From: Patescibacteria group bacterium
GTDB taxonomy: Bacteria; Patescibacteriota; Patescibacteriia; UM-FILTER-42-10
Direction of reading: 5' to 3'
Length of the DNA: 64,000 bases
Assembly (NCBI GenBank): GCA_041664365.1
Contig: JBAYKW010000001.1
Coordinates: 71,168 to 135,167, forward strand
Below are positions 18,829 to 59,854 of the stretch, in pieces. The translations under genes and the position numbers were made by a program. Position 1 is the first letter of the stretch. Every line of letters starts with the position of its first letter. The notes under the pieces were generated by a model. The model was not told the origin of the DNA. It was given only the letters and a program-made list of their open reading frames with translations, and searched no databases.

Positions 18829-20216
18829 TATTTATTTTTATGAATTTTTGGCCCCGAAGATGTATCAGTAACAATATACCCCAATGATTCAATTTCCGCT
18901 CTTATTTTGTCCGCTTCGCTAAAATCTTTGGCTAAACGCGCGTGCTCCCTTTTTGTCGCCAGTGTTTTAACGTGCTTTGGTGCTTCTTCTGTTTGCTCAA
19001 GTTTATCCAATCCGAGTCCCAGTACTTTGTCATATTCCAGTACTGTTCCTTTTTTTGCACCTGCCGGTAAGTTGGATTTAAAAATTTTCCAGACCAGTGC
19101 CAGTGCTTTAGGCATGTTCAGATCATCATTAATTGCATCCTCAAATTGCTGTTTAAAATCCTCATTAACGACCGGGTTGGTGTCTTTATAACTTTCCATC
19201 TGCCGATAAATAGAATCAAGCGCGGTGTTGGCTCCTTCCAGGTTTGTCCAATTGAAAGTCAGTTTCGAACGGTAATGGGTGGTAAGCAGTAAATAGCGAT
19301 AGGCGAGGGGATTAATCCCTTTCTCTTTCAGTGTTTCCAGAGTTATAAAATTCCCTTTTGATTTTGCCATTTTTTCGTCCTTCAGAATCAGAAACTCCCC
19401 GTGCAGCCAGTAGTTGGCCAGTTTTCTGTCGTTTGCCGCTTCACTCTGCGCTATTTCGTTCGTATGGTGGACGGGAATATGATCAACTCCGCCACAGTGA
19501 ATATCAAAAGGCTGACCCAGATATTTTACGGCCATTGCCGAACATTCTATTGCCCAACCGGGAAATCCGATGCCCCACGGCGATTCCCATTCCATCTGGC
19601 GCTTCGGCTCGCCTTTCAAAGGGTCTGGTGAAAATTTCCACAAAGCAAAATCATTCGGGCTTTTTTTGCCTTCCACGACCGCCACTCTGGCACCGGCCTT
19701 TTGCGCTTTGATATCTAGCCTGGCCATCTGTCCGTAACTTTCAAATTTACCGGTGTCAAAATATACGCCATCCGCAATGGTATAGGTGTAACCCTTTTCC
19801 TCTAACTTTTTAACCAGCTCAATCTGTTCTTTGATGTGGTCAGTGGCTTTGCACCAGATCACGGGTTCCGTAATGTTGAGGTCCGACATGTCGTTTTTAA
19901 ATGCAGAAGTGTAATACTCAGCAATTTCCCATACCGTTTTCTTTTCCTGCTTGGCCCGTTTTTCCATTTTATCTTCACCGGTGTCCGCATCTGATACCAG
20001 ATGCCCGACATCAGTAATATTCATCACATGTTTTACTTTGTAGCTATTGTATTGCAATACCCGTCGTAATATATCCTCAAAAACATAAGTCCGGAGGTTT
20101 CCGATGTGCGCAAAATTATAAACAGTCGGACCGCAAGTATATAAACCAACCTCTGAATCTTTCAGAGGTTTAAAGGTTTCTTTTTTTCTTGAAAGGGTAT
20201 TAAACAGCGTAAGCAT
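18828..20216 (-). CDS. cysS: Cysteine--tRNA ligase
   Basis: HIGH motif (HIGNLRTY). KMSKS motif (KMAKSKGN). The zinc-binding Cys ligand is conserved. Confidence 0.95.
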
Positions 20217-21193
20217 TATTTTTGCTGATTTGAATTACTAATAACTTTTGACTTATAGTCGATTAATTCGTTTGTCCACTCATTGATTACTTCTTCTACA
20301 TCTTTGGCAGTTACTTCCGGAAGTGTTTCACCTTCTTTTGGATTCGTAATAGCTGACAAACGGACTTTTGCCGATGCTTCATCCATAATATCGATTGCCT
20401 TATCTGGAAAGTAGCGGTCTTTTAAGTATTTATCCGCCAGATCCACTGCCGCTTCCACTGCGCCATCAGTGATTTTAACCATATGATGTGTTTCATAATT
20501 GCCCCGGACGCCTTTAAGAATCATCAGAGTGTCATTGATACTTGGTTCTTTGACCATGACCGGCTGAAATCTTCTTTCCAACGTCGGATCGGTTTTGATA
20601 TATTTGATGTATTCTTCTTCTGTGGTAGCTCCGATAGCCTGTAGTTCTCCTCGTGCCAGTGCCGGTTTCAGAATATCTGACGCGTCAATTGCCCCGGATG
20701 CCTCGCCGGCTTCCGCTAAAGTTTGTAGTTCATCGATAAAAAGAATAATATTTCTTTCGGCATTCCTTATTTCATCTACAATTCCTTTTAATCTCTGCTC
20801 GAATTCACCGCGATATTTCGTACCGGCAACCAGTCCAGAAAGGTCCAAGGCCAAAACGCGTTTGTTTTTCAACGAGCTTGGGACATTATTGTTTCTTATT
20901 TCATTGGCCAATTCTTCCACAATCGCGGTTTTACCGACGCCGGATGGTCCGATTAAAACCGGATTATTTTTTGTCCGTCTGGAAAGAATCTGAATGACAC
21001 GTTTCAATTCGTGATAACGGCCGACTACCGGATCCAGTTTACCTTTTTCCGCTAATGCCGTAAGATCGCGTGAGTATTTGTCCAATACTGACCCTTTTTT
21101 TTCGTGGTTTTTTTGCTGACCATACCACAGTGAAAGACCGATAGAAACAAATATAATAATTGCAATGAAAAAATATACTGGGTCAGATGCCAT
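20216..21193 (-). CDS. Membrane-anchored single-domain AAA+ ATPase, ClpA/ClpB D1-like
   Basis: One N-terminal TM helix. The sequence [59 protein letters not shown] is near-identical in pattern to the ClpB D1 start. Walker [10 protein letters not shown] and sensor residues are present. The protein ends after D1 with no M-domain or D2. Confidence 0.8.
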
Positions 21194-22794: not shown

Positions 22795-23373
22795 TTACCG
22801 GATTATGTACCAGGGATCGAATTCTAGCAGGCCATAGACGGTCTGCTTAGAGTCCTCGATCAACGGCCCCCTGTAATGCGGGCCGTACGTCTGCCCCCAA
22901 GTTACCTCCACGGTAACCAGGTGCATACCCGGTGCGAGGTTAGTGAACCGCGCGTTGTCCAGGCCGACTAACCATGGGTTGTCGGTCCGTATCCGGAAGT
23001 AGAAGTAGCCGTCGCGACCCTGCTCGGCAACGATGGGGCCGAAATCGTCGACCCAGACCTCGACGAGCATCACCTTGGAAAGAAACTCGTCGTGCTTCCC
23101 GACCTGAACCCTCATCAAGCTCTCGGTGTACCGCAGCTTGAAAGGTTTCTTCGGCTTTTCCGGCTTGGAGTAGCCGATCTCGCTGAACATCACGTGCCCG
23201 TTCTCGTCGGTGTAGCGCAACGCCATCAACTTGAGCTCCTTGGAGCCGAAGTTGGTTTCAGTGTGGATGTTGTACACGCCTTCGAAGTTTCTCCACATAT
23301 GAGTGGAACAACCCGAGAGCGCGAACGTGGCCGCAAGGACCACCAGAGTGGAAATGAACGTGCGCTTCTTCAT
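22795..23373 (-). CDS. Putative lipoprotein (high-GC gene, unknown function)
   Basis: The real start is taken as MKKRTFISTLVVLAATFALSGC (lipobox LSGC), with RBS AAAGGAG 7 nt upstream. The track ORF extends to 23484 through the leader. GC is about 57% against a window average near 40%. Confidence 0.6.
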   Translation of the reverse strand: MKKRTFISTLVVLAATFALSGCSTHMWRNFEGVYNIHTETNFGSKELKLMALRYTDENGHVMFSEIGYSKPEKPKKPFKLRYTESLMRVQVGKHDEFLSKVMLVEVWVDDFGPIVAEQGRDGYFYFRIRTDNPWLVGLDNARFTNLAPGMHLVTVEVTWGQTYGPHYRGPLIEDSKQTVYGLLEFDPWYIIR

Positions 23374-23392
23374 GGCGCTCTCCTTTGGGTTG

Positions 23393-23412
23393 ATCATCCG
23401 CTTTCGGATGAT
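23393..23412. promoter_or_regulatory. Palindromic repeat copy 1 in the lipoprotein 5' leader (ATCATCCG-CTTT-CGGATGAT)
   Basis: An 8-bp perfect inverted repeat with a 4-nt spacer, lying between the predicted -10 and the RBS. Confidence 0.4.
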
Positions 23413-23451
23413 GTGTGATCGCCGAATCTCGAGAATCCTGAGAGTCTGGAT

Positions 23452-23469
23452 ATCCGCTTTCGGATGATT
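23452..23469. promoter_or_regulatory. Palindromic repeat copy 2 (ATCCG-CTTT-CGGATGATT), 57 bp from copy 1
   Basis: Shares the 17-nt direct-repeat core ATCCGCTTTCGGATGAT with copy 1. Confidence 0.4.
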
Positions 23470-23501
23470 GAGTTGCTGATTCACCCATTGTGAAACATTA
23501 G

Positions 23502-23580: not shown

Positions 23581-23609
23581 TTGCAAAAATAGCTAAAATG
23601 TGATATACT
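23581..23609 (+). promoter_or_regulatory. Sigma70-type promoter for the coiled-coil/ATPase operon
   Basis: TTGCAA (23581-23586), 17-nt spacer, TATACT (23604-23609). Confidence 0.45.
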
Positions 23610-23648
23610 ATATTCATTATTATTAAGAAATATTATTAATCAAATTAT

Positions 23649-24134
23649 ATGCCGGAACCGTTTGAGAAACCGATTACACCTGAAACTGCCCCTCAACAGA
23701 TGCCAGACAAAGATAGGCAGGAGGGTGGTGCTGAGGTTGAGAAGGAGTTAGAAAAACTGGAAAGTGAAATAAATAGGCAGGAAAAATCAATTCACTCAGT
23801 TACCGCGTCACTGCCGATTAAGCAGATGACTCCGACAAAACCGCAGGTTGTAAAATCGGCCACACGAAAACAAATTGAAGGAATTTTATCAGAGGATCTT
23901 AAGGAATTGTTTCAGGGGATGGATGCAGCACACAAAGCAGAATTTAAAAGGCAAGCCTCGGAAACAGCTTCCGCACTGGAAATATTAATAGCTTCGGCAA
24001 AAGCTACGGCCAGGAAAGTAGTAAAACTGATCAGCACCTGGTTGAAGCTGATACCCGGTATTAATGAATTTTTTCTGGAGCAGGAGGCAAAAATAAAAAC
24101 GGATAAGTTAATGGAGCTGGTTAAGAAAAAATAG
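23649..24134 (+). CDS. Hypothetical coiled-coil protein
   Basis: 161 aa, Glu/Lys-rich heptad-like sequence. The stop lies 3 nt before the start of the large ATPase gene. Confidence 0.55.
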   Translation: MPEPFEKPITPETAPQQMPDKDRQEGGAEVEKELEKLESEINRQEKSIHSVTASLPIKQMTPTKPQVVKSATRKQIEGILSEDLKELFQGMDAAHKAEFKRQASETASALEILIASAKATARKVVKLISTWLKLIPGINEFFLEQEAKIKTDKLMELVKKK

Positions 24135-24137
24135 GAT

Positions 24138-26918
24138 ATGGATTTTGATATTCAGACAATTTTTTCCAATCCAATAATACTTGGCGCGATCATATTTATA
24201 TCCGCCATCTTTATTATTGTTATTCTGCTCAAGATTGTCCGATTATGGTTGAAGAGAGGTCATTATCTCCCCGCAGGATTCCACAATGACACGTTACTGG
24301 TAATGGTTCCTAAAGAATTTGCCAGGGAAGATGATGAACGAAGAACAATTCCGGAATTAATTCTGCAGTTGGAACCGCTCTATACCAACCTTGGCGGATT
24401 GAAACCGCAACGTGGTTTGAATGCTTTTCTGTTCGGTCGGCATGACAATATTGCTTTTGAAATAATAAAAGATAAAGAGGAACGCATATCGTTTTACGTA
24501 ACTGTGCCACACTATTTAAAAAATTTCACAGAACAGCAAATCCATTCGGCATATCCTTCGGCAACTGTTGAAAAAGTGGAGGATTATAATATATTCATGG
24601 CACAGGGTGAAACTGTTGGCGCGTATTTGGTTCTGAAAAAACCATATATTTTCCCGATTAATACTTACAAAAAATTAGAAGTAGACCCGCTAAACGCAAT
24701 TACAAATTCATTATCAAAGTTGAACGAAGGAGAAGGAGCAGCGATACAAATATTGGCGCGCTCAGCTAATGCAGCCTGGCATGCCTGGCCGGCGAAGGTT
24801 GCATCGGAAATGCAACAGGGAAAAAAGCTGAAGGAAGCAATGAATTCATCGGCAGGCAGTTCCAAAGGTTTTGTCGGCAGTATTTTTAAATCAATATTTA
24901 CATCTTCAAAAGCTAAGGAAGATGATTTGCTTGATAAACCAAAACCGCATCAACTATCTCCAATGGACGAGGAAATAATTAAATCACTGGGGGAAAAGAC
25001 CTCCAAAGCCGGTTTTGACGTAAATATCAGGATTGCGGTTTCCTGTAAAGAAAAAGAGAACGCGGAAAGGCAATTAAGAAATATTGTGAATTCATTTTCT
25101 CAGTTTTCCGGATACGAGTATGGAAACGGATTTTCAACTATTTTGGTAGGTGGCAAACGTCGCATTTTTCATGATTTATTTTTCCGTAATTTTAACGAAC
25201 GCAGGTCGGTTCTGCTCACCAAAAACAGGTTCTTCCAGGATTTCATATTCCGTAATTTCAGCGATCGGAATTCTTATGTACTGAATACTGAGGAAATGAA
25301 CAGCATCTATCATTTTCCAATCAAGCTGTCGGAGACACCAAATATCCGCTGGCTCATGGCCAAAAAAGCGGCTCCGCCAAGTAATCTGCCAGATGAAGGA
25401 ATTATTTTGGGTGAGACTGATTATCGCGGACAAAAATCATTGATCCGAATAAAAGACCAGGATCGGCAAAGACATGTCTACATCATAGGACAAACCGGAT
25501 CGGGTAAGTCATATACCATGGCCAATATGGCGGTCCAGGATATCCAAAGAGGAGAGGGCTGTTGTTTGATTGACCCGCACGGCGGATTGATCGATGAATA
25601 CGTATTGCCGAACATACCGAAAGAGCGCGCGGAGGACGTGATTTATTTTGATCCATCAGATATGGAGAGGCCGATGGGTCTGAATCTTTTGGAATACGAT
25701 AAAAAATACCCTGAACAGAAGACTTTTGTAATCAATGAAATGATCAATATCTTTGATAAGCTGTACAACCTTTCCCAGACTGGCGGTCCGATGTTTGAAC
25801 AGTATATGCGTAATGCAATGCTCCTGGTGATGGATGATCCGAACGATACGGCTACACTCCTCGAAATTCCAAAAGTAATGGCGGATAAACAGTACCGCAC
25901 GGAAAAACTTGCCAAGGCGACTAACATTGTTGTTAAAAGATTTTGGGAGGAAGAAGCGGAAAAAGCCGGCGGTGAAGCGTCGCTTGCCAATATGGTTCCC
26001 TACATCACCAGTAAATTGAGCACTTTCATTTCAAACGACTATATGCGTCCGATTATCGCTCAGAAAGAAAGCGGATTCAATTTTCGGAAAGTAATGGATG
26101 AGCGAAAAATATTGCTGATCAATCTTTCTAAAGGAAGAATCGGCGATCTGAACGCGAAGCTACTGGGTTTGGTGATGGTGGGAAAAATACTGATGGCATC
26201 ATTAAGCCGTGTTGATATTCCGGAAGAGGAAAGAAAACCGTTTTACCTGTATATTGATGAGTTTCAAAATTATGTTACGGACAGTATTGCTGTCATATTA
26301 TCAGAAGCCAGAAAATACAAATTGTGTCTGACTATGGCTCACCAATATTTAGGACAATTAGTAGAAAATAACGACACTACAATCAAGGATGCGGTATTTG
26401 GAAACGTCGGCACGATTGCCGCATACCGGGTGGGTGTGGAGGATGCGGAACTCTTTGCCAAGCAGTTTGAGCCGGTATTTAACGAATATGATGTAATGAA
26501 TGTAGATAAATATGGGTTTAATCTTAAGCTATTAATCGACAATACACATGCCCGACCTTTTAATGTTAAAGGAAGAACCCTGCCTAAAGGCAATCCGCAA
26601 ATGGTGCAGGCCATCAAAGAGCTATCCAGGCTGAAATACGGAAAGGACCGCAATATTATTGAATCGGAAATTGCACTGCGCACGGCAATTAAAAAACCTC
26701 TGCCTCTAAATCCTGCTTTCTCCAGACGCGCATCAATCAGCGCTTTCCCAGTAAAACCGCTGGCAACTGACCCAGTGTCCGGAAACAAACAACCAGAGGC
26801 TACGGTTCAAACTGCACCTCTGCAGAATCCAATACAGAATACTGTTGTGTCCAATCCTGTTTCAAAACCGCCATCATCTGTGCCGTCTCCTGATATAAAT
26901 ACAAACATTAAGCCATAG
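24138..26918 (+). CDS. Membrane-anchored P-loop ATPase of the VirD4/TraG/TrwB-FtsK-HerA superfamily (type IV coupling protein-like) with a ~440-aa N-terminal domain of unknown function
   Basis: N-terminal TM helix (residues about 13-33). Walker A GQTGSGKS followed by the CLIDPHGGL motif, as in TrwB/VirD4. Walker B YLYIDEFQNY. Motif EARKYKLCLTMAHQYLGQL resembles the EGRKxG...ATQ motif of FtsK/HerA/T4CP. Low-complexity Pro/Ser/Asn C-terminal tail. Confidence 0.7.
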   Translation: MDFDIQTIFSNPIILGAIIFISAIFIIVILLKIVRLWLKRGHYLPAGFHNDTLLVMVPKEFAREDDERRTIPELILQLEPLYTNLGGLKPQRGLNAFLFGRHDNIAFEIIKDKEERISFYVTVPHYLKNFTEQQIHSAYPSATVEKVEDYNIFMAQGETVGAYLVLKKPYIFPINTYKKLEVDPLNAITNSLSKLNEGEGAAIQILARSANAAWHAWPAKVASEMQQGKKLKEAMNSSAGSSKGFVGSIFKSIFTSSKAKEDDLLDKPKPHQLSPMDEEIIKSLGEKTSKAGFDVNIRIAVSCKEKENAERQLRNIVNSFSQFSGYEYGNGFSTILVGGKRRIFHDLFFRNFNERRSVLLTKNRFFQDFIFRNFSDRNSYVLNTEEMNSIYHFPIKLSETPNIRWLMAKKAAPPSNLPDEGIILGETDYRGQKSLIRIKDQDRQRHVYIIGQTGSGKSYTMANMAVQDIQRGEGCCLIDPHGGLIDEYVLPNIPKERAEDVIYFDPSDMERPMGLNLLEYDKKYPEQKTFVINEMINIFDKLYNLSQTGGPMFEQYMRNAMLLVMDDPNDTATLLEIPKVMADKQYRTEKLAKATNIVVKRFWEEEAEKAGGEASLANMVPYITSKLSTFISNDYMRPIIAQKESGFNFRKVMDERKILLINLSKGRIGDLNAKLLGLVMVGKILMASLSRVDIPEEERKPFYLYIDEFQNYVTDSIAVILSEARKYKLCLTMAHQYLGQLVENNDTTIKDAVFGNVGTIAAYRVGVEDAELFAKQFEPVFNEYDVMNVDKYGFNLKLLIDNTHARPFNVKGRTLPKGNPQMVQAIKELSRLKYGKDRNIIESEIALRTAIKKPLPLNPAFSRRASISAFPVKPLATDPVSGNKQPEATVQTAPLQNPIQNTVVSNPVSKPPSSVPSPDINTNIKP

Positions 26919-26951
26919 TGTACTCAGTTTTGAATGCAAAAATAGAAATAT

Positions 26952-27500
26952 ATGTTTGATTCTTTTTTTTATTTTATCTTAATAATCGCAGTACTGTTAC
27001 TATTTGGGACAATGGCGTATGCCGGTTATCGGGGTGCTCCCTGGGTACCGACAAAAAAGAAAGATTTAAATCGCCTGATCGAACTTTCGGGAATAAAAGA
27101 CGGTGATATAGTTTTTGAATTGGGTTCCGGTGACGGGCGCATTCTTTTTGAAATTGCAAAGCGTTTCAAGGTGTCCGCAATCGGAGTGGAAATCTCATTA
27201 CCGCCGTATTTGGTTTCGAAAATCAAGGCCTGGCTAATGAATAAAATATTTGTTCATAAAATGAGGGGTACTGTCAGTATAAAATATCGTGATCTGTTTC
27301 AACAAAGTCTTACTTCAGCTGATCTGGTTGTTTGTTTTCTCATGCCGAAATCAATAACTGAATTGGAAGAAAAATTTGCCAAGGAATTGAAAAAAGGCGC
27401 TAAAGTTATTTCGTACGTGTTTCCGCTGAAATCATATGAGCCAAGAGCAGTAAGTAAGCCGGAAAAATCAAGTATTGCTATATATTTATATCAGTTTTAG
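26952..27500 (+). CDS. Class I SAM-dependent methyltransferase-like protein with an N-terminal TM helix
   Basis: Motif I VFELGSGDGRIL. Acidic beta2 end GVEIS. Motif II ADLVVCF. Confidence 0.55.
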   Translation: MFDSFFYFILIIAVLLLFGTMAYAGYRGAPWVPTKKKDLNRLIELSGIKDGDIVFELGSGDGRILFEIAKRFKVSAIGVEISLPPYLVSKIKAWLMNKIFVHKMRGTVSIKYRDLFQQSLTSADLVVCFLMPKSITELEEKFAKELKKGAKVISYVFPLKSYEPRAVSKPEKSSIAIYLYQF

Positions 27501-27678
27501 TATTTCGATTAATAGAATGTACGCGGGGATTCAACCCGTTTTTTTGCTGAATAAGTTGAATTGCACTTTACATTTGAAAACTCAATATGATACAATGTTA
27601 ATAACAAAAAACAAACATAAATTTACATAAAATAAAAAATAAATATAAAGAAGAATAAAAAGGGGAGGCAAAAATAAA

Positions 27679-28329
27679 ATGGTAGACGAAAATAAACTGG
27701 CACAAATAAAACAACTCATTGCTTCAGCGGAAGAAGCTATTCGTGTTGCTAAAGGCATGTTGGAAGGGGAATCGGAAGAATCGGATGCTGATTCAATTTC
27801 AAACGAAATCAGTCATTTACAAAAAGCCCGTTCGGTCGGTTCTGTGGACCACAACGGACGTGTCGTTGAAGGAGTTTTTGACGGTTTGAATATGGTTGGG
27901 CCGGATGGAAAGCAGTATAATGTGCCGGCGAACTATGCTTCCAAATCAAAACTGGTTGAGGGTGATGTATTAAAACTGACCATTTCTAATGATGGTTCTT
28001 TTGTTTTTAAGCAGATTGGCCCAGTTGAGAGAAAAAGATTGATCGGTATGCTCACTCAAGAAGAGTCAACGGGCGAATATCAGGTTTTAGCAAACGGTAA
28101 AAACTATAAGGTTCTTTTGGCAAGTATTACGTATTTTAAAGGAGAAGTCGGGGATGAAGTAGTTATACTGGTTCCAACAAACAAGCAAACGGAATGGGCG
28201 GCCGTGGAAAATATTGTTAAAGGCGGTGAAAGCCAACTGATTATTGATAACGGCGTAAGTACGGTAGCAATTCATGATGAGGAAGTAATTCCTGAAAAGG
28301 AGAAGGTTATAGACGATTTAGAAATATAG
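27679..28329 (+). CDS. Hypothetical protein with two internal tandem repeats
   Basis: 216 aa. Repeated pattern G..DGK.Y.VPANYASKSKLVEGD / G..NGKNYKVLLASITYFKGEVGDE. Very strong RBS AAAAGGGGAGG. Acidic termini. Confidence 0.55.
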   Translation: MVDENKLAQIKQLIASAEEAIRVAKGMLEGESEESDADSISNEISHLQKARSVGSVDHNGRVVEGVFDGLNMVGPDGKQYNVPANYASKSKLVEGDVLKLTISNDGSFVFKQIGPVERKRLIGMLTQEESTGEYQVLANGKNYKVLLASITYFKGEVGDEVVILVPTNKQTEWAAVENIVKGGESQLIIDNGVSTVAIHDEEVIPEKEKVIDDLEI

Positions 28330-30740: not shown

Positions 30741-30759
30741 AAAGGATTTTAGAAAGAAT

Positions 30760-30790
30760 CAACGTGAATAGAGCACGTTGTTTTTTTATT
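30760..30790 (+). terminator. Intrinsic terminator downstream of tRNA-Gln
   Basis: CAACGTG-AATAGAG-CACGTTG followed by TTTTTTTATT. Confidence 0.6.
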
Positions 30791-30897
30791 AGTGTGGATT
30801 CGAACGGGCAGAAGCGAAACAATCCGGAGCGAAGTGAAGGAGCAGTAGAGCGTCGACAAATGCGAGCCTGCGTAGCATTTGGCGCTGCCCAGGACGA

Positions 30898-30917
30898 GAA
30901 TCCCTCCTCCCCAACCA
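30898..30917 (+). repeat. Direct repeat of the tRNA-Gln 3' end (att-like)
   Basis: GAATCCCTCCTCCCCAACCA matches tRNA 30721-30740 (GAATCCCTCCTCCCCAGCCA) at 19/20 positions. It lies inside the high-GC island. Confidence 0.5.
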
Positions 30918-30990
30918 CGGGTCATCAGACCCTTCACCTGTCACAACCAAGCAAGCTTGGTTGTTTTAGGTTGCGGGTCTGTGCCCCTTT

Positions 30991-31040
30991 CCCCAACCCG
31001 CCAAGGGCGGGTCGGGGGCCCCATTTTTTGGTTTTATTTT
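30991..31040 (+). terminator. GC-rich intrinsic terminator inside the island
   Basis: CCCGCC-AAG-GGCGGG plus a GGGGGCCCC palindrome, followed by ATTTTTTGGTTTTATTTT. Confidence 0.45.
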
Positions 31041-31183
31041 CTGTCTCGGCGAAGATGAGCTCGGCTAGTCAAGCCAATGCCTTGCGCGCTCCTGTTGCGC
31101 TCAGGATAAATAATGAATAAAGATGTTTGTTTATAAATGGGATTTGAACGGATGTGCTAAGCAAGGACGTTCTGGCTATTATT

Positions 31184-31212
31184 GACATGCCAACCTACAT
31201 AATGTAAGTTGC
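31184..31212 (+). promoter_or_regulatory. Sigma70-type promoter of the Cys-rich gene
   Basis: TTGACA, 17-nt spacer, TAAGTT. Followed by RBS AAAGGGAGG 8 nt before the ATG. Confidence 0.45.
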
Positions 31213-31253
31213 ACACTGCGTAGCTCATCTTCAGTCTGAAAGGGAGGAAAAGC

Positions 31254-31763
31254 ATGAGCTTCAGTGACTTGATATTGCGGATGTACTGTCTTAGTCCATT
31301 CCGCTTCACGGCAACCAAGTGCGGTCATCGCACAAAGCGTACCGGAAAGTTGTCCGCGTTCGGACTCACTGTGATCTGCAGGAGCCCCATGAACACTGAC
31401 GGTTCGGTGGATTACTGTCATGACTGCCTTGGCAGTATGACCATCCAATGCGTGTGGTGCGGTGAACCGATTCTTGTCGGTGATCCGATTACGCTGTACA
31501 CGCCTGCGATTGCACTGTTTGCGCCGGTAGATGAATGGTGTATTCCCAAACATGCGGTCATCTACCGCAAAGAGCATCCTGTTCAACTCGTCGGTTGCCT
31601 CAGAATGAGTTGCGCCGATTCCAGCGCGGATCGAGCAGGGTTCTGGCTTCCGGGTGAAGACGGTAAAGGCCGTGTCCTGCGGGTACAAACTGCACTTGAA
31701 GCCATCCTTAACGCACCTGTATCGTCAATCATGCTGGTGCGCGACACGCACGACTTCGCTTGA
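31254..31763 (+). CDS. Cysteine-rich hypothetical protein (high-GC island cargo)
   Basis: 169 aa with 11 Cys, including CHDC...CVWC. Strong SD. About 56% GC. The antisense ORF 31179-31688 is judged spurious. Confidence 0.5.
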   Translation: MSFSDLILRMYCLSPFRFTATKCGHRTKRTGKLSAFGLTVICRSPMNTDGSVDYCHDCLGSMTIQCVWCGEPILVGDPITLYTPAIALFAPVDEWCIPKHAVIYRKEHPVQLVGCLRMSCADSSADRAGFWLPGEDGKGRVLRVQTALEAILNAPVSSIMLVRDTHDFA

Positions 31764-31923
31764 AGCGATGAATTTGACGTTCATTCCTCTCGATAACCAT
31801 CCGGCTAGGTAGCCACCAAATTCCGGTAGGTATGGCGGGCTGACATTTCATGATGTTAGCTCTTTTTATTGGAAAAATGACTGCATAATTAAACCCCTAT
31901 ACTTAGTTTTATATTTTTTTAAA

Positions 31924-56093: not shown

Positions 56094-57044
56094 ATGAACA
56101 GTGCGGTCCAAAAAACGGTAACAAAAATAGCATCTTTAGAAATACAGGGTGCGACACAGATAACCAGAGTAATTTTGGATGCTTTGCAGTCCGAAAGCAA
56201 TCAGTTGCTGAAAAAAACTAAGACTCAATTTCTCTCTGAGATAAGAAAAAGCGGCAAAGCGCTGGCAGAAGCAAGACCAACCGAACCGCTATCACGTAAT
56301 TCAGTCCAATTCGTATTACACTATTTAGAGAACAATAAAGACGGTTTGTCTGTCCCTGAACTGGTGAAACTACTAAAAAAAGCCTGCCATCTCTTTTTAG
56401 TTCTTCTGAAATATCATGATCAGAAAATTGCTGAGGCTGGTGCAAGACTGATTAAGCCGAATATGAAAGTGTTTACGCACTGTCATTCCTCGACTGTGGA
56501 ACATATTATTGCGGAGGCCAGCAAGCACTCTAAGATGCCGCGCGTTTTTTGCACGGAAACACGTCCGCTGTTTCAGGGCAGAACAACAGCTAAAAATCTT
56601 TTGAAACAAAAAATTGATGTTACAATGGTGGCTGATTCCGCAGCCGCGTTTCTGATCAGTAGAACTAGTGGTCGTGAAGTGATGGTGGACATTGCTTTTC
56701 TGGGTGCTGACTCTGTTACATCCGGCGGTTCGGTAATCAATAAAGTTGGCAGCTTTGGTATCGCACTGGTTGCTAATCATGAAAAAATCCCGGTTTATGT
56801 TGCTGCGTCTCTTTTAAAAACCGATCCGGAAACATTTATCAGTAAATATATCGGTATTGAACTGCGCGACCGAAAAGAAATATGGCCGAATGGTCCCAAG
56901 GGATTGAAGATAATCAATTTTGCTTTTGATCGTATCCCGTTCAAATTTATCAAGGGGATAATTTGTGAATTTGGCGTAATTAAGCCGCGCGATGTCGCGT
57001 ATCTGGTGCAAAAACATTACCCATGGATTTTTAAAAACTTTTAA
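56094..57044 (+). CDS. eIF-2B alpha/beta/delta-family isomerase, probable ribose-1,5-bisphosphate isomerase
   Basis: Family motifs VFTHCHSSTV, VFCTETRP and LGADSV. Sits between guaA and RuBisCO. Confidence 0.75.
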   Translation: MNSAVQKTVTKIASLEIQGATQITRVILDALQSESNQLLKKTKTQFLSEIRKSGKALAEARPTEPLSRNSVQFVLHYLENNKDGLSVPELVKLLKKACHLFLVLLKYHDQKIAEAGARLIKPNMKVFTHCHSSTVEHIIAEASKHSKMPRVFCTETRPLFQGRTTAKNLLKQKIDVTMVADSAAAFLISRTSGREVMVDIAFLGADSVTSGGSVINKVGSFGIALVANHEKIPVYVAASLLKTDPETFISKYIGIELRDRKEIWPNGPKGLKIINFAFDRIPFKFIKGIICEFGVIKPRDVAYLVQKHYPWIFKNF

Positions 57045-57045
57045 A

Positions 57046-58278
57046 ATGAATAAATTTTATAAAAAATTTGTTGATCAAGATTATAAACCAAAAAAAACGG
57101 AATTAGTCGCTTCTTTTTATATGGATACAAATATTGATTTTTCAGATGCGGCAGGAGGAGTAGCGGCAGAATCTTCTATCGGAACCTGGACTGATCTTGC
57201 CACATTATCCAAAGCAACATTTACAAAGCTTGGTGCTAAAGCATTTGATATTGATAAAAAAGCGCACACCTTCAAAGTCGCTTATCCAATTGCCTTGTTT
57301 GAAAAGGGAAGCATCCCGCAATTTTTATCCGGTGTTGCCGGAAATGTTTTTAGCATGAAGATAATAAAAAATCTGCGCCTCTCAGATGTTGATTTTCCGG
57401 AAAGTTATGTAAATAGTTTCCAGGGGCCACGCTTCGGTATTAAGGGTATTAGACGCATAACGGGAATTTATGACAGACCAATTCTAGGGTCGATTTTAAA
57501 GCCGAAGTTGGGTCTATCAGCACTGCAGCACGCCACTCTTTCTTATCAAGTATTCATCGGTGGAATTGATTTGGTAAAAGATGATGAAAATCTGACCGAC
57601 CTTTCCTTCAGCCGTTTTGACCAGCGGGTGCGTCTAACATTAAAAATGAGGGATAAAGCAGAAAAGGAAACAGGCAGTAAGAAGCTTTGTGTTTTTAATA
57701 TAACGGCACAGCCGGACGAAATGATCAGGAGAGCACAACTGGTTAAAAGTTTGGGTGGTGAAGTAGTGATGATAGATATGGTATCTGTCGGCCTCGACAA
57801 TGTGCAAATGTTGCGCAAACGGGATCTGGGATTAATAATCCATGGCCATCGCGCGGGACACTCAATGTTTACAAAAAACAGTAAGCACGGAATGAGTATG
57901 CTGGTGTTATCAAAACTGGCGCGTCTTGCCGGAATCGACCAATTGCATACCGGCACGGTAGTCGGAAAAATGGAAGGCGGTAAGGATAATGTGGTGGAAA
58001 TCGATGATTTTCTGCGCAGTAAATGGTTCGCAATCAAGACAGTATTCCCAATCGCATCGGGCGGTCTGTATCCTAATCTGATACCGTCGTTATACAAAAT
58101 ATTCGGCAAGGATGTAATTATGAACTTTGGCGGTGGAATTCATGGACACCCCGACGGAACATTCGCTGGTGCAAAAGCTGTAAAGCAGGCTTTGGACGCA
58201 ACAATTAACGGGGTGTCACTTGAAGAATATGCAAAGGATAACATCGAATTAGCTGTCGCGATTAGGTATTGGAAATAA
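57046..58278 (+). CDS. rbcL: RuBisCO large subunit, form II/III
   Basis: Start at MNKFYKK (57046); the track ORF begins upstream, inside the previous gene. Motifs KPKLGLS, GGIDLVKDDENL (carbamylated Lys), IHGHRAGH and GGGIHGHPDG. Confidence 0.9.
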   Translation: MNKFYKKFVDQDYKPKKTELVASFYMDTNIDFSDAAGGVAAESSIGTWTDLATLSKATFTKLGAKAFDIDKKAHTFKVAYPIALFEKGSIPQFLSGVAGNVFSMKIIKNLRLSDVDFPESYVNSFQGPRFGIKGIRRITGIYDRPILGSILKPKLGLSALQHATLSYQVFIGGIDLVKDDENLTDLSFSRFDQRVRLTLKMRDKAEKETGSKKLCVFNITAQPDEMIRRAQLVKSLGGEVVMIDMVSVGLDNVQMLRKRDLGLIIHGHRAGHSMFTKNSKHGMSMLVLSKLARLAGIDQLHTGTVVGKMEGGKDNVVEIDDFLRSKWFAIKTVFPIASGGLYPNLIPSLYKIFGKDVIMNFGGGIHGHPDGTFAGAKAVKQALDATINGVSLEEYAKDNIELAVAIRYWK

Positions 58279-58351
58279 GTAATTCGTAAATGGTAATTGG
58301 TAATCACGAACTGCAAATTACTAAATTACCAATTACAAATAAAAATAAATC

Positions 58352-59854
58352 ATGGCATTCTATTTGAGGGCAAAAAAGATTGATATTGAAACCGGCGAAA
58401 TGCCGAAGGTTCTTTTGAATGAAAAGGAGGCATTGAATTTTGGTATTCGTGCGGGGGATAGCATCGGTTTATCTTGGCATAATCGCAAAAGAATATTCGC
58501 AACTGTGAATTTAGCAGAAAAGGAGATTAAACCAGGAGAGATAGGGCTGTTTGAGGAAATCTGGGTTAAGTACCCGATGAAGAAAGATGAAATTATTGAA
58601 GTTGCAATAGTGGAACGCCCGGAATCAGTAAAAGCTATAAATAAAAAATTAAAAGGCGGTGTATTAAACTATGAAGAAATCCATTCAATAATCGCCGATA
58701 TTGTAAGCAGAAGACTTGGTCCTGTTGAGACTTCATATTTTGTCGCATCAGGTTTTTCACAACCGTATACATCTCAAGAATTGTACTCTTTGACGAAGTC
58801 AATCGCTGAAACGGGGGAACAGCTGAGTTTCCCTAAAAACAAAATTGTAGTGGACAAACATTCCGTCGGTGGTTTGGCCGGAAACAGAACAACAATGATC
58901 GTAGTACCGATTGTTGCTGCATTCGGTTTGTATATTCCCAAAACATCTTCACGTGCGATAACTTCTCCATCAGGAACAGCAGATACAATGGAGGTATTAG
59001 CACCGGTCAGTTTCACCATGGCAAGGATCAAGCAGATGGTAATGAAAAATAAAGTATGTATGATCTGGGGTGGCGGACTGAATATTGCTCCGGCAGATGA
59101 TTTAATAATCAAGGTTACAAAACCGTTATCCTTAGAACCATTTGATAAAATGGTTGTCAGTATTTTAGCAAAAAAAGTTGCAATGGGAATTAAATATCTG
59201 ATAATTGATATGCCGGTCGGTATTACATCGAAAATTCCGGATATGAAAACCGCAAATGATATTGAAAAGAAGTTCATATATCTGGGCAAGCGTTTCGGAA
59301 TTAAAGTTCATGTGGAAAAAATATTTGCCAATGAACCGGTAGGTAGAGGGGTCGGACCAGCATTAGAATCACGCGATGTCCTGCGTGTATTGCAACAAAA
59401 AAGCAACAGGCCAAAAGATTTACAGGATAAGGCACTGATTTTGGCTGGAAAACTTCTGGAAATATCCGGTCAGGTGGCGCGCGGTAAGGGAAAGTCAGTT
59501 GCAGAAGAAATTCTAGTTTCCGGTAAGGCATGGAAAAAAATGCAGGTTGTAATCAAGGAGCAAGGGGGTGATTCAACAATTGATTCAGACGCTGTGGTTT
59601 TGGGTGGTGAATATTACCGGGTACTTTCGACAAAGATTGGAAAGATAACTGCAGTTGATAATAAAGCCATAGACGAGATCGCCAGAACTTTAGGAGCTCC
59701 AGCAGAGAAGCTAGCCGGTATTTATTTACATAAAAGGGTTGGACAGGAAGTTAAGAAAGGCAGTAAACTATTCACTTTTTATGCAAACCGCAGGGAAAGA
59801 ATTGAACTCGCAAAAAAAGCTATTGAAAAGATCAATATATTTACAATTTCTTAG
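58352..59854 (+). CDS. AMP phosphorylase (thymidine phosphorylase family, archaeal DeoA-like)
   Basis: N-terminal AMPpase-specific domain (KKIDIETGEMPKVLLNEKEALNFGIRAGDSI). Thymidine-phosphorylase core VDKHSVGGLAGNRTTMIVVPIVAAFG. 500 aa. Confidence 0.85.
   Translation: MAFYLRAKKIDIETGEMPKVLLNEKEALNFGIRAGDSIGLSWHNRKRIFATVNLAEKEIKPGEIGLFEEIWVKYPMKKDEIIEVAIVERPESVKAINKKLKGGVLNYEEIHSIIADIVSRRLGPVETSYFVASGFSQPYTSQELYSLTKSIAETGEQLSFPKNKIVVDKHSVGGLAGNRTTMIVVPIVAAFGLYIPKTSSRAITSPSGTADTMEVLAPVSFTMARIKQMVMKNKVCMIWGGGLNIAPADDLIIKVTKPLSLEPFDKMVVSILAKKVAMGIKYLIIDMPVGITSKIPDMKTANDIEKKFIYLGKRFGIKVHVEKIFANEPVGRGVGPALESRDVLRVLQQKSNRPKDLQDKALILAGKLLEISGQVARGKGKSVAEEILVSGKAWKKMQVVIKEQGGDSTIDSDAVVLGGEYYRVLSTKIGKITAVDNKAIDEIARTLGAPAEKLAGIYLHKRVGQEVKKGSKLFTFYANRRERIELAKKAIEKINIFTIS

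Follow-up and report, generated by a model that had tools for sequence, protein, structure and literature searches.

The window examined here is a 64,000-nucleotide stretch (positions 71,168 to 135,167) of contig JBAYKW010000001.1 from assembly GCA_041664365.1 of a Patescibacteria group bacterium, and the subject of this analysis is a membrane-anchored ATPase of 926 aa encoded in it, whose motor half resembles the coupling proteins (T4CPs) of type IV secretion systems (T4SSs). According to the open reading frame (ORF) listing, the ATPase gene is the second of three ORFs on the plus strand (Table 1), being preceded by a gene for a small soluble protein (named cc161 here) and followed by one for a methyltransferase-like protein. 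The stop codon of the small gene lies 3 nt before the ATPase start (AAA TAG gat ATG), exactly as an earlier preliminary description of this DNA had stated, and the gap between the ATPase and methyltransferase genes is 33 nt. The GC content of this region is unremarkable compared with the rest of the window. The promoter from which cc161 had been thought to be transcribed was not confirmed: the site agrees with 9 of 12 consensus positions, and the region contains 20 such sites against 14.1 ± 3.8 in shuffled sequences, which is no enrichment, so that its position is what makes a promoter there plausible.

A membrane-anchored ATPase of two domains

Judged by its sequence, the motor half of the ATPase (aa 436-850) is T4CP-like, i.e., of the TrwB/VirD4 kind, as had been claimed for the P-loop half. 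The Pfam families T4SS-DNA_transf (36.3 bits, cut-off 20.1), TrwB_AAD_bind (34 bits, cut-off 20.5), and DUF87 (33.9 bits, gathering threshold 23.2) were all matched above their cut-offs and TraG-D_C slightly below it, and the last three were matched by each of the 32 aligned members of the family. When the family profile was compared with the sequences in the PDB, TrwB was the best match (5e-6), followed by DotL (6.5e-4) and HerA (3e-3), and VirB4 was absent. All motifs listed in the preliminary description (GQTGSGKS, DPHG, YLYIDEFQ, and EARKY...HQ at aa 723-736) are present, and in the alignment of 32 homologues G451, G454, G456, K457, D479-G482 (the DPHG motif, aa 479-482), D707-Q710, E723-Y727, H735, and Q736 are invariant or nearly so. 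The region at aa 723-736 may supply an arginine finger. In the structural model, a helical block (aa 526-655) is placed between Walker A and Walker B, the TrwB_AAD_bind profile is covered at positions 9-306 of 387, and Foldseek aligned the full model to TrwB with a TMt of ~0.6 over ~420 columns. The Pro/Ser/Asn-rich tail that had been described is indeed found at aa 853-926, where disorder is predicted, and its length differs widely across the family.

Membership in the FtsK/SpoIIIE family was not supported. Its profile PF01580 was matched with an E value of 0.096 and 12.5 bits against a cut-off of 24, and the FtsK gamma and 4TM profiles were not matched; a role as FtsK substitute was also considered and rejected as unlikely, as Southlakia (ML1) has a separate essential canonical FtsK. 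As to HerA, DUF87 was matched above its threshold in a region that T4CPs share, and the NCBIfam HerA models gave 11-14 bits against cut-offs of at least 800. No conserved nuclease partner was found beside the ATPase across 80 related loci from different species, the sample to which all neighbourhood counts below refer.

A single hydrophobic segment of transmembrane grade was detected in the ATPase by hydropathy (19-aa windows spanning aa 3-41) and none in cc161, in agreement with the single helix claimed before. Since one transmembrane helix is followed by basic residues (LKRGH), the N-terminal domain and the motor would lie on the same side of the membrane, which would necessarily be the cytoplasm under a positive-inside reading. 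The N-terminal domain itself had been regarded as a novel 440-aa domain without recognizable motif. It turned out to be a catalogued domain of unknown function, DUF8128, because PF26449.1 is precomputed on P0001, whose sequence equals that of the window protein, as well as on each of the 120 best homologues listed. PF26449 is newer than the Pfam release used for scanning, so the assignment was taken from the precomputed annotation; the scan of the N-terminal domain with the older release, which predates PF26449, gave no match, and a literature search for 'PF26449' found no paper. When the N-terminal 392 residues were used as query, 1,926 cluster representatives (50% identity level) were retrieved, with matches starting 40-60 residues into targets of typically 800-870 aa. 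DUF8128 occurs in thousands of Patescibacteria proteins and also in Bacillus phages.

The full-length AlphaFold2 model had a pLDDT of 80.2, and the model of the N-terminal domain a pLDDT of 85.8 and a pTM of 0.83. Compared with the PDB, the full model was most similar to the TrwK/VirB4 chains of the R388 T4SS (~930-970 columns, E 1e-12), whereas TrwB was aligned over ~420 columns only. For the N-terminal domain, the top 14 matches were all TrwK/VirB4 (E 1e-5 to 1e-3, probability 0.94-1.0, TMq 0.31-0.42), followed by a gap and then by unrelated alpha/beta folds. TrwB, HerA, and FtsK were absent from these structure matches; because they have the motor of VirB4 without its N-terminal domain, the match appears to be specific to the N-terminal domain of VirB4. 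In the BFVD database, the domain matched phage G gp156 (4.5e-18), the N-terminal part of the VirB4-like phage protein gp155 (4e-8), and a predicted viral structure annotated as 'component of type IV transporter system'. VirB4 sequence profiles did not recover this likeness (TIGR00929, E 0.0076 and 14.5 bits versus a cut-off of 643; AAA_10, E 0.096), and CagE_TrbE_VirB was not among the 25 most-matched families across 32 members of the ATPase family. A 21-aa diverged tandem duplication (aa 340-382) is absent from 31 homologues and was seen in the protein only (local score 61 versus 22 ± 4.5 for shuffles); TRF found nothing at the DNA level in this region.

The protein thus shares features with both kinds of T4SS ATPase. 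Like the T4CPs (TrwB/VirD4/TraG/TraD), it has the Walker A...DPxG, Walker B, and RK...Q signatures, a predicted helical block within the motor, and an N-terminal membrane anchor. However, this anchor is one transmembrane helix where T4CPs have two joined by a short external loop, a DUF8128 domain (390 aa, predicted to be cytoplasmic) lies between anchor and motor, and the gene is a core chromosomal one that has a dedicated small upstream partner and is unlinked to T4SS or relaxase genes. Like VirB4/TrwK/TraC, it has two domains, an alpha/beta one of ~400 aa at the N-terminus and a RecA-like motor after it, and its DUF8128 model matches the N-terminal domain of TrwK and the N-terminal part of gp155, whereas its motor is nearer to T4CPs, with a putative TrwB-type helical domain, and it carries its own transmembrane helix. 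The assignment of family and architecture, taken by itself, is made with high confidence. The window gene is an uncharacterized one that earlier catalogues list under DUF8128 and count as a 'T4CP homologue'; what is new here is the fold assignment of DUF8128, the split of the family into two lineages by their partners, and the link by synteny between one of these lineages (type I) and an essential gene pair. Such a two-domain architecture bears on the divergence of the VirB4 and VirD4 ATPases.

Table 1. Features of the ATPase locus, with positions in the window
Feature	Position	Strand	Basis or remark
Promoter-like site TTGCAA-17-TATACT with upstream TG	23581..23609	+	164-nt divergent intergenic region; consensus match
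cc161, small soluble partner protein, 161 aa	23649..24134	+	ORF; homologue directly upstream in 55/80 loci
cc161 conserved C-terminal region, aa 76-155, including WLKxIPGVNKFFLEQEAKIKTDKI	23874..24113	+	Conservation over 54 members
926-aa membrane-anchored DUF8128 + T4CP-like ATPase, type I lineage	24138..26918	+	ORF, profiles, alignment, models, trees
Single N-terminal transmembrane helix, core aa 13-31	24174..24230	+	Hydropathy; model helix 12-41
DUF8128 (PF26449) N-terminal domain, aa 46-431, VirB4-NTD-like alpha/beta fold (predicted)	24273..25430	+	Precomputed Pfam; models
Lineage-specific internal duplication KRRIFHDLFFRNFNERRSVLL / KNRFFQDFIFRNFSDRNSYVL, aa 340-360 / 362-382	25155..25283	+	Low-confidence DUF8128 loop
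T4CP-like nucleotide-binding domain with predicted helical (all-alpha-like) insertion, aa 436-850	25443..26687	+	Pfam, PDB profile search, Foldseek
Walker A GQTGSGKS, aa 451-458	25488..25511	+	G451, G454, G456, K457 invariant in alignment
Walker B YLYIDEFQ, aa 703-710	26244..26267	+	D707, E708, F709, Q710 invariant in alignment
EARKYKLCLTMAHQ, aa 723-736, conserved Arg/Gln region aligning with TrwB GRKAGLRVVAGLQ	26304..26345	+	Alignment
Disordered Pro/Ser/Asn-rich C-terminal tail, aa 853-926	26694..26915	+	pLDDT < 50
aKMT-type protein-lysine methyltransferase-like protein, transmembrane-anchored, 182 aa	26952..27500	+	Transmembrane segment ~aa 5-25, catalytic domain aa 29-180
Terminator-like hairpin + T-run	27523..27549	+	23 nt past methyltransferase stop; consensus match only
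unk216: coiled-coil N-terminus + highly conserved beta-rich core, aa 62-180	27679..28329	+	Frequent downstream neighbour of ATPase

Genomic neighbourhood and partner proteins

At least 2,167 homologues of the ATPase are present in a large sequence database, and the best 120, which share 50-77% identity over ~90% of the length, are nearly all from metagenome-assembled genomes (MAGs) of Patescibacteria. Among the GTDB species, each represented by one genome, at least 593 carry a relative. The ATPase gene is a core gene in housekeeping synteny, with no mobile element. Many of the MAGs carrying it (L001, L005, L009, L055, L056, L063, and others, from 'binchicken' or SRP co-assemblies) are labelled Gammaproteobacteria, Bdellovibrionales, or Saccharibacteria; these organism labels are unreliable, because the closest relatives of the partner proteins belong to Paceibacteria/Parcubacteria.

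The coupling of a small upstream gene to the ATPase, proposed from the window alone, recurs in most relatives. In 52-55 of the 80 loci, the gene directly before the ATPase, in the same orientation and separated from it by -3 to ~120 nt, is a cc161 homologue. In a further 15-19 loci this position is held by another family ('group B', 136-201 aa), and small-protein families fill it in most loci without cc161. The 161-aa ORF had been described as a Glu/Lys coiled coil; the ORF stands, and the view of it as merely a coiled coil does not, since aa 76-155 carry a conserved motif. Its N-terminal half is variable and probably disordered, its C-terminal region is helical and conserved, and its 389 homologues are all 'hypothetical' without any Pfam domain.

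The proteins at this position upstream of type I ATPases (L082 5552-5989; L050-L080) have ~140-200 aa, a low-complexity N-terminal half, and a helical C-terminus. They belong to at least three mutually dissimilar families, namely cc161, 'group B' (KGVxHAVKVARxLxDxYxLDxxHD), and a Saccharimonadia type. Profile-profile comparison of cc161 with 'group B' revealed no similarity (hhalign probability 0.1%), and the small ORF of L082 matches neither of the two. A common origin of the partner proteins was considered and is unsupported, the three families being without detectable homology.

On the other side of the ATPase, a homologue of unk216 is found downstream in 34-36 of the 80 loci, in most of them as the first downstream gene, and dnaX follows directly or one gene on in 44-50; cysS and corA are recurrent upstream. 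No match of unk216 to Pfam or PDB profiles was found. A type II DUF8128 ATPase (P0260, L087 5001-8120; the two types are described below) has a C-terminal unk216-like core (pairwise E 7e-14, HMM 1.6e-21), and this fusion was seen on three contigs, among housekeeping genes (DnaB, EF-P, RuvC). As a single event, it points to unk216 and the ATPase being functionally linked. The neighbour counts show that the conserved unit is the small partner plus the ATPase, often with unk216 and dnaX after them, and that the trio with the methyltransferase is not conserved.

The orphan status of the ATPase has been borne out. Among the other ORFs of the window, the 20 largest were compared with Pfam, and no T4SS gene was detected: two had no match, and 18 were housekeeping genes (e.g., DnaE, FtsW, DnaK/J, GuaA/B, and RuBisCO). 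A second ATPase of the same superfamily is absent from the window, and neither in the window nor within 10 kb in the 80 loci was a gene for a relaxase or for a VirB4-like, VirB6-like, TrbL-like, or second superfamily ATPase protein found.

The third gene of the locus encodes the protein that had been described as a membrane-anchored class I methyltransferase. Hydropathy detected one hydrophobic segment, at aa 1-27, and the enzyme can be named more exactly as aKMT-type: aa 29-180 align with Sulfolobus aKMT structures (5fa8, 6.6e-21; 5jwj, 2.2e-20), and 135 of the 142 positions of the NF041081 profile are matched (E 3e-19, 69.5 bits versus a cut-off of 200). It has the VPT and GxGDGR motifs of the aKMT/DOT1-like archaeal enzymes, from which it differs by its N-terminal transmembrane anchor and by a score below the NCBIfam equivalog cut-off; the similarity shows it to be a relative of aKMT rather than an equivalent. 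A methyltransferase gene adjoins the ATPase in four of the 80 loci (L021, L042, L045, and L062), whereas in L006, L018, and L032 the homologue is kilobases off or upstream. Conservation of the trio in relatives had been set beforehand as decisive for the three-gene arrangement; it recurs, weakly, in these four loci, and the methyltransferase falls outside the conserved unit. It is a lineage-specific neighbour that is at most co-transcribed.

Paralogous lineages and phage relatives

Quinonero-Coronel et al. (2025; PMC12102498) reported 5,713 VirD4-like T4CP homologues in 2,918 of 3,035 Patescibacteria genomes, about two per genome and far from virB4, which itself was found in 2,417 genomes; possible exaptation was suggested, citing a non-essential homologue of ML1. 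Both Southlakia genes discussed below (SEML1_0142 and SEML1_0293) are of this kind. The family of the window ATPase is almost certainly the same gene set, and its members carry the same NCBI annotation names. The literature treats the T4CP homologues as one class; the present analysis splits them into two lineages that differ in their upstream partners.

Transposon sequencing in Southlakia (PMC10633639, Table S1) covered two T4CP-like genes. SEML1_0293 was scored NE/NE/NE, and SEML1_0142, a core gene enriched in Patescibacteria, was scored ES/ES/ES, with 114 insertions in the input DNA and 11 at T0. SEML1_0141, which encodes a 139-aa hypothetical protein and lies 12 nt upstream of SEML1_0142, was scored GD/ES/ES, with nine input insertions and none recovered. 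SEML1_0141 and SEML1_0142 have the same layout of small gene plus ATPase as the window. A protein with DUF8128 that shares 38% identity with the window protein over 869 aa (P0240) is encoded at locus L082 in the order L20, L35, IF3, Mg-chelatase (YifB), (SmpB), small ORF, 12-nt gap, ATPase, two minus-strand genes, GyrB, and GyrA, which is the order of SEML1_0135-0146 (10-gene synteny). This shared gene order makes P0240 a positional orthologue of SEML1_0142. No synteny with ML1 was found at L055, L056, and L078, and when group-B partners were used as queries for a SEML1_0141 counterpart in the large database, the top matches were all from Paceibacteria.

The second lineage (type II) is represented by P0210 and P0228, which have DUF8128 and TrwB_AAD_bind and follow a gene for a Sigma70_r4/HARE-HTH protein of 362-365 aa (L083/L084 3758-7826 and L085 85-4088); in L085 the two genes overlap by 4 nt. 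This layout mirrors SEML1_0294 (an essential 'RpoS') followed by the non-essential SEML1_0293. In this lineage, the upstream partner of the motor is a DNA-binding protein of sigma-like type. In a neighbour-joining tree, type II was monophyletic with the window protein outside it in 95 of 100 bootstraps. In addition, BLAST of the window protein gave 476-549 bits for proteins of the SEML1_0142 type versus 436-487 bits for type II. The window gene is assigned to type I because of these BLAST scores, its layout with a small upstream gene, and its position in the tree, and it is likely, but not proven, to be an orthologue of the essential SEML1_0142. Given these two types, the published description of 'the' T4CP homologue of ML1 as non-essential needs qualification.

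More distant relatives are found in phages. PHROG 5156 matched aa 100-845 of the ATPase (E 6.7e-88), and tblastn recovered 51 phage records, 47 of them from Bacillus phages, at ~21-23% identity, the best of which cover both domains. The proteins of PHROG 5156 (SPP1 gp32, phage G gp156, and those of SP-10 and D6E) are homologous over nearly the full length, including a DUF8128-like N-terminal domain (80.6 bits for its HMM on phage G gp156), but they have no transmembrane helix. SPP1 gp32 is non-essential, lacks a transmembrane helix, and adjoins small membrane proteins, together with which it was proposed to make up a translocon (PMC6316719). In phage G (L086 884-6448), gp153 (TrbL/VirB6-like), a small ORF, gp155 (a VirB4-like ATPase with 57 bits for P-loop_TraG and 36 bits for AAA_10 in Pfam), and gp156 (DUF8128 plus T4CP-like ATPase) lie in a row, so that gp156, directly after VirB6-like and VirB4-like genes, sits where a coupling protein would sit. 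The Patescibacteria loci, by contrast, lack such neighbours. This giant phage carries a compact T4SS-like set (gp153-gp156). The phage matches connect DUF8128 with Bacillus phage proteins (SPP1 gp32 and phage G gp156) that have had no assigned function since the annotation of the SPP1 genome.

Possible functions and other features of the window

Like its relatives, the protein most likely assembles into a hexamer that uses ATP to drive translocation on the inner side of the membrane. Its most likely role would be that of a coupling ATPase, or second ATPase, for the Gram-positive-type T4SS that Patescibacteria encode elsewhere on the chromosome and that lacks a recognized coupling protein. The VirB4-like N-terminal domain would dock the motor on a membrane complex, and the small partner and, in the window lineage, unk216 might act as adaptor or regulator. 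This coupling role is preferred because Southlakia has an essential T4SS with no coupling protein encoded in its cluster (PMC10633639), because the apparent type I counterpart, SEML1_0142, is essential too, because a VirB4-type head could dock on a VirB3/VirB4/VirB6/VirB8-like complex, and because phage G shows a DUF8128 ATPase beside T4SS-like genes. As a whole, a translocation ATPase with a role in T4SS coupling is given an even chance of being right. Patescibacteria depend on host bacteria, and a conserved T4CP-like core ATPase with a VirB4-type head and a dedicated partner is an obvious candidate for the motor missing from the essential T4SS of Southlakia.

A number of observations weigh against it. 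No T4SS gene lies within 10 kb of the ATPase in the window or in the 80 loci, and 148 of the 5,713 T4CP-like genes of Patescibacteria are near virB4 (PMC12102498); T4CP-like genes occur in 96% of genomes versus 80% for VirB4, which leaves room for a T4SS-independent role. The likeness to the N-terminal domain of VirB4 is seen at the fold level, in models with TM scores of 0.31-0.42 to TrwK, and homology is not demonstrated. The family membership of SEML1_0142 was deduced from synteny and length, not from sequence, and the small partners fall into three families without detectable homology to one another. The most recent common ancestor of the window and SEML1_0142-type proteins excluded type II in 52 of 100 replicates only, and the rooting of the neighbour-joining tree on the long phage branch is unstable, which leaves the sister status of the two undecided by the tree. 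Hexamer, substrate, and partner interactions are predictions.

It is also possible, if rather doubtful, that the ATPase works with its small partner as a stand-alone DNA or nucleoprotein motor with a housekeeping task independent of any T4SS, such as segregation, the handling of DNA linked to replication, or its uptake and export where the cell meets its host. Such a translocase would suit the strictly chromosomal core synteny, with dnaX as the first or second gene downstream in 44-50 of the 80 loci and gyrB/gyrA in Saccharimonadia, although the dnaX synteny may reflect only a gene order conserved among related classes. Further support comes from type II, whose gene is translationally coupled to one for a DNA-binding protein (Sigma70_r4/HARE-HTH), and from weak matches to the NCBIfam models of CedD and CedB, two ATPases of DNA import in archaea; the family is also more widespread than VirB4, and phage homologues such as SPP1 gp32 have no VirB4 neighbours. 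However, no DNA-binding domain was identified in the ATPase, and unk216 has no recognizable fold family. Southlakia has a canonical essential FtsK, which makes plain FtsK replacement unlikely, and deletion of comEC abolishes competence while viability is kept (PMC12857230), so that ComEC-dependent uptake cannot explain essentiality. In a broader and quite tentative proposal, in which our confidence is low, the lineage with VirB4-type head and VirD4-type motor would keep a two-domain layout that predates the loss of the VirB4 N-terminal domain by T4CPs, and the type I ATPase plus small partner would be an essential, unrecognized module, either the missing coupling ATPase, which would explain why the pilus-bearing T4SS is indispensable, or a stand-alone translocase for acquiring macromolecules from the host.

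The three genes of the window may also be read as a working operon in which the membrane-tethered lysine methyltransferase modifies the ATPase, its partner, or the substrate. All three lie on one strand with gaps of 3 nt and 33 nt, the terminator-like hairpin stands only past the methyltransferase, the ATPase and the methyltransferase are both membrane-anchored, and their adjacency recurs in L021, L042, L045, and L062. This explanation is nevertheless unlikely: those are four of 80 loci, the homologue is kilobases off or upstream in three others, most members of the family, including the Saccharimonadia loci, have no methyltransferase neighbour, and aKMT-type enzymes are broad-specificity lysine methyltransferases. 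A defence function, which the preliminary description had suggested, found no support. PADLOC matched the ATPase to mad8 (E 2e-15) and the methyltransferase to mad2 (E 2.7e-11), weak HerA matches were seen, and homologues occur in phages, which might point to a MADS-like or HerA-type system of ATPase plus methyltransferase or to a decayed conjugative or mobile element. MADS is an eight-gene operon (mad1-8) whose mad2 is a DNA methyltransferase of ~490 aa, whereas the present methyltransferase is a 182-aa protein of the protein-lysine type, the other six genes are absent, and the PADLOC matches are confined to generic P-loop and SAM-binding cores, i.e., generic domain similarity to two parts of an eight-gene system. 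Moreover, the ATPase gene is a vertically inherited core gene (50-77% identity across classes, housekeeping synteny, ordinary GC content), and no integrase, relaxase, or other conjugation gene was found in the 80 loci or in the 20 further ORFs of the window that were scanned; both a defence system and a mobile element are thus highly improbable.

Several other features of the window were noted. Two stretches are richer in GC: one (22795-23484, minus strand) encodes a 229-aa putative lipoprotein that has no counterpart among the 80 related loci, and the other (30750-31800), after GIY-YIG/tRNA-Gln, contains overlapping ORFs on both strands and has no Rfam match at gathering thresholds. Either stretch may have been inserted recently. 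Upstream of the ATPase locus, at 20216-21193 on the minus strand, lies a gene for a 325-aa protein consisting of an N-terminal transmembrane helix and a single ClpA/B-type AAA module (GPSGVGKT), which is far shorter than ClpB; a 323-aa homologue with 62% identity is similarly placed in L045. In addition, a RuBisCO large subunit (428 aa) is followed by a Glycos_transf_3/PYNP_C protein (500 aa) at 56992-59854 on the plus strand, as would be expected of the AMP/nucleoside salvage pathway that Patescibacteria and archaea typically have.

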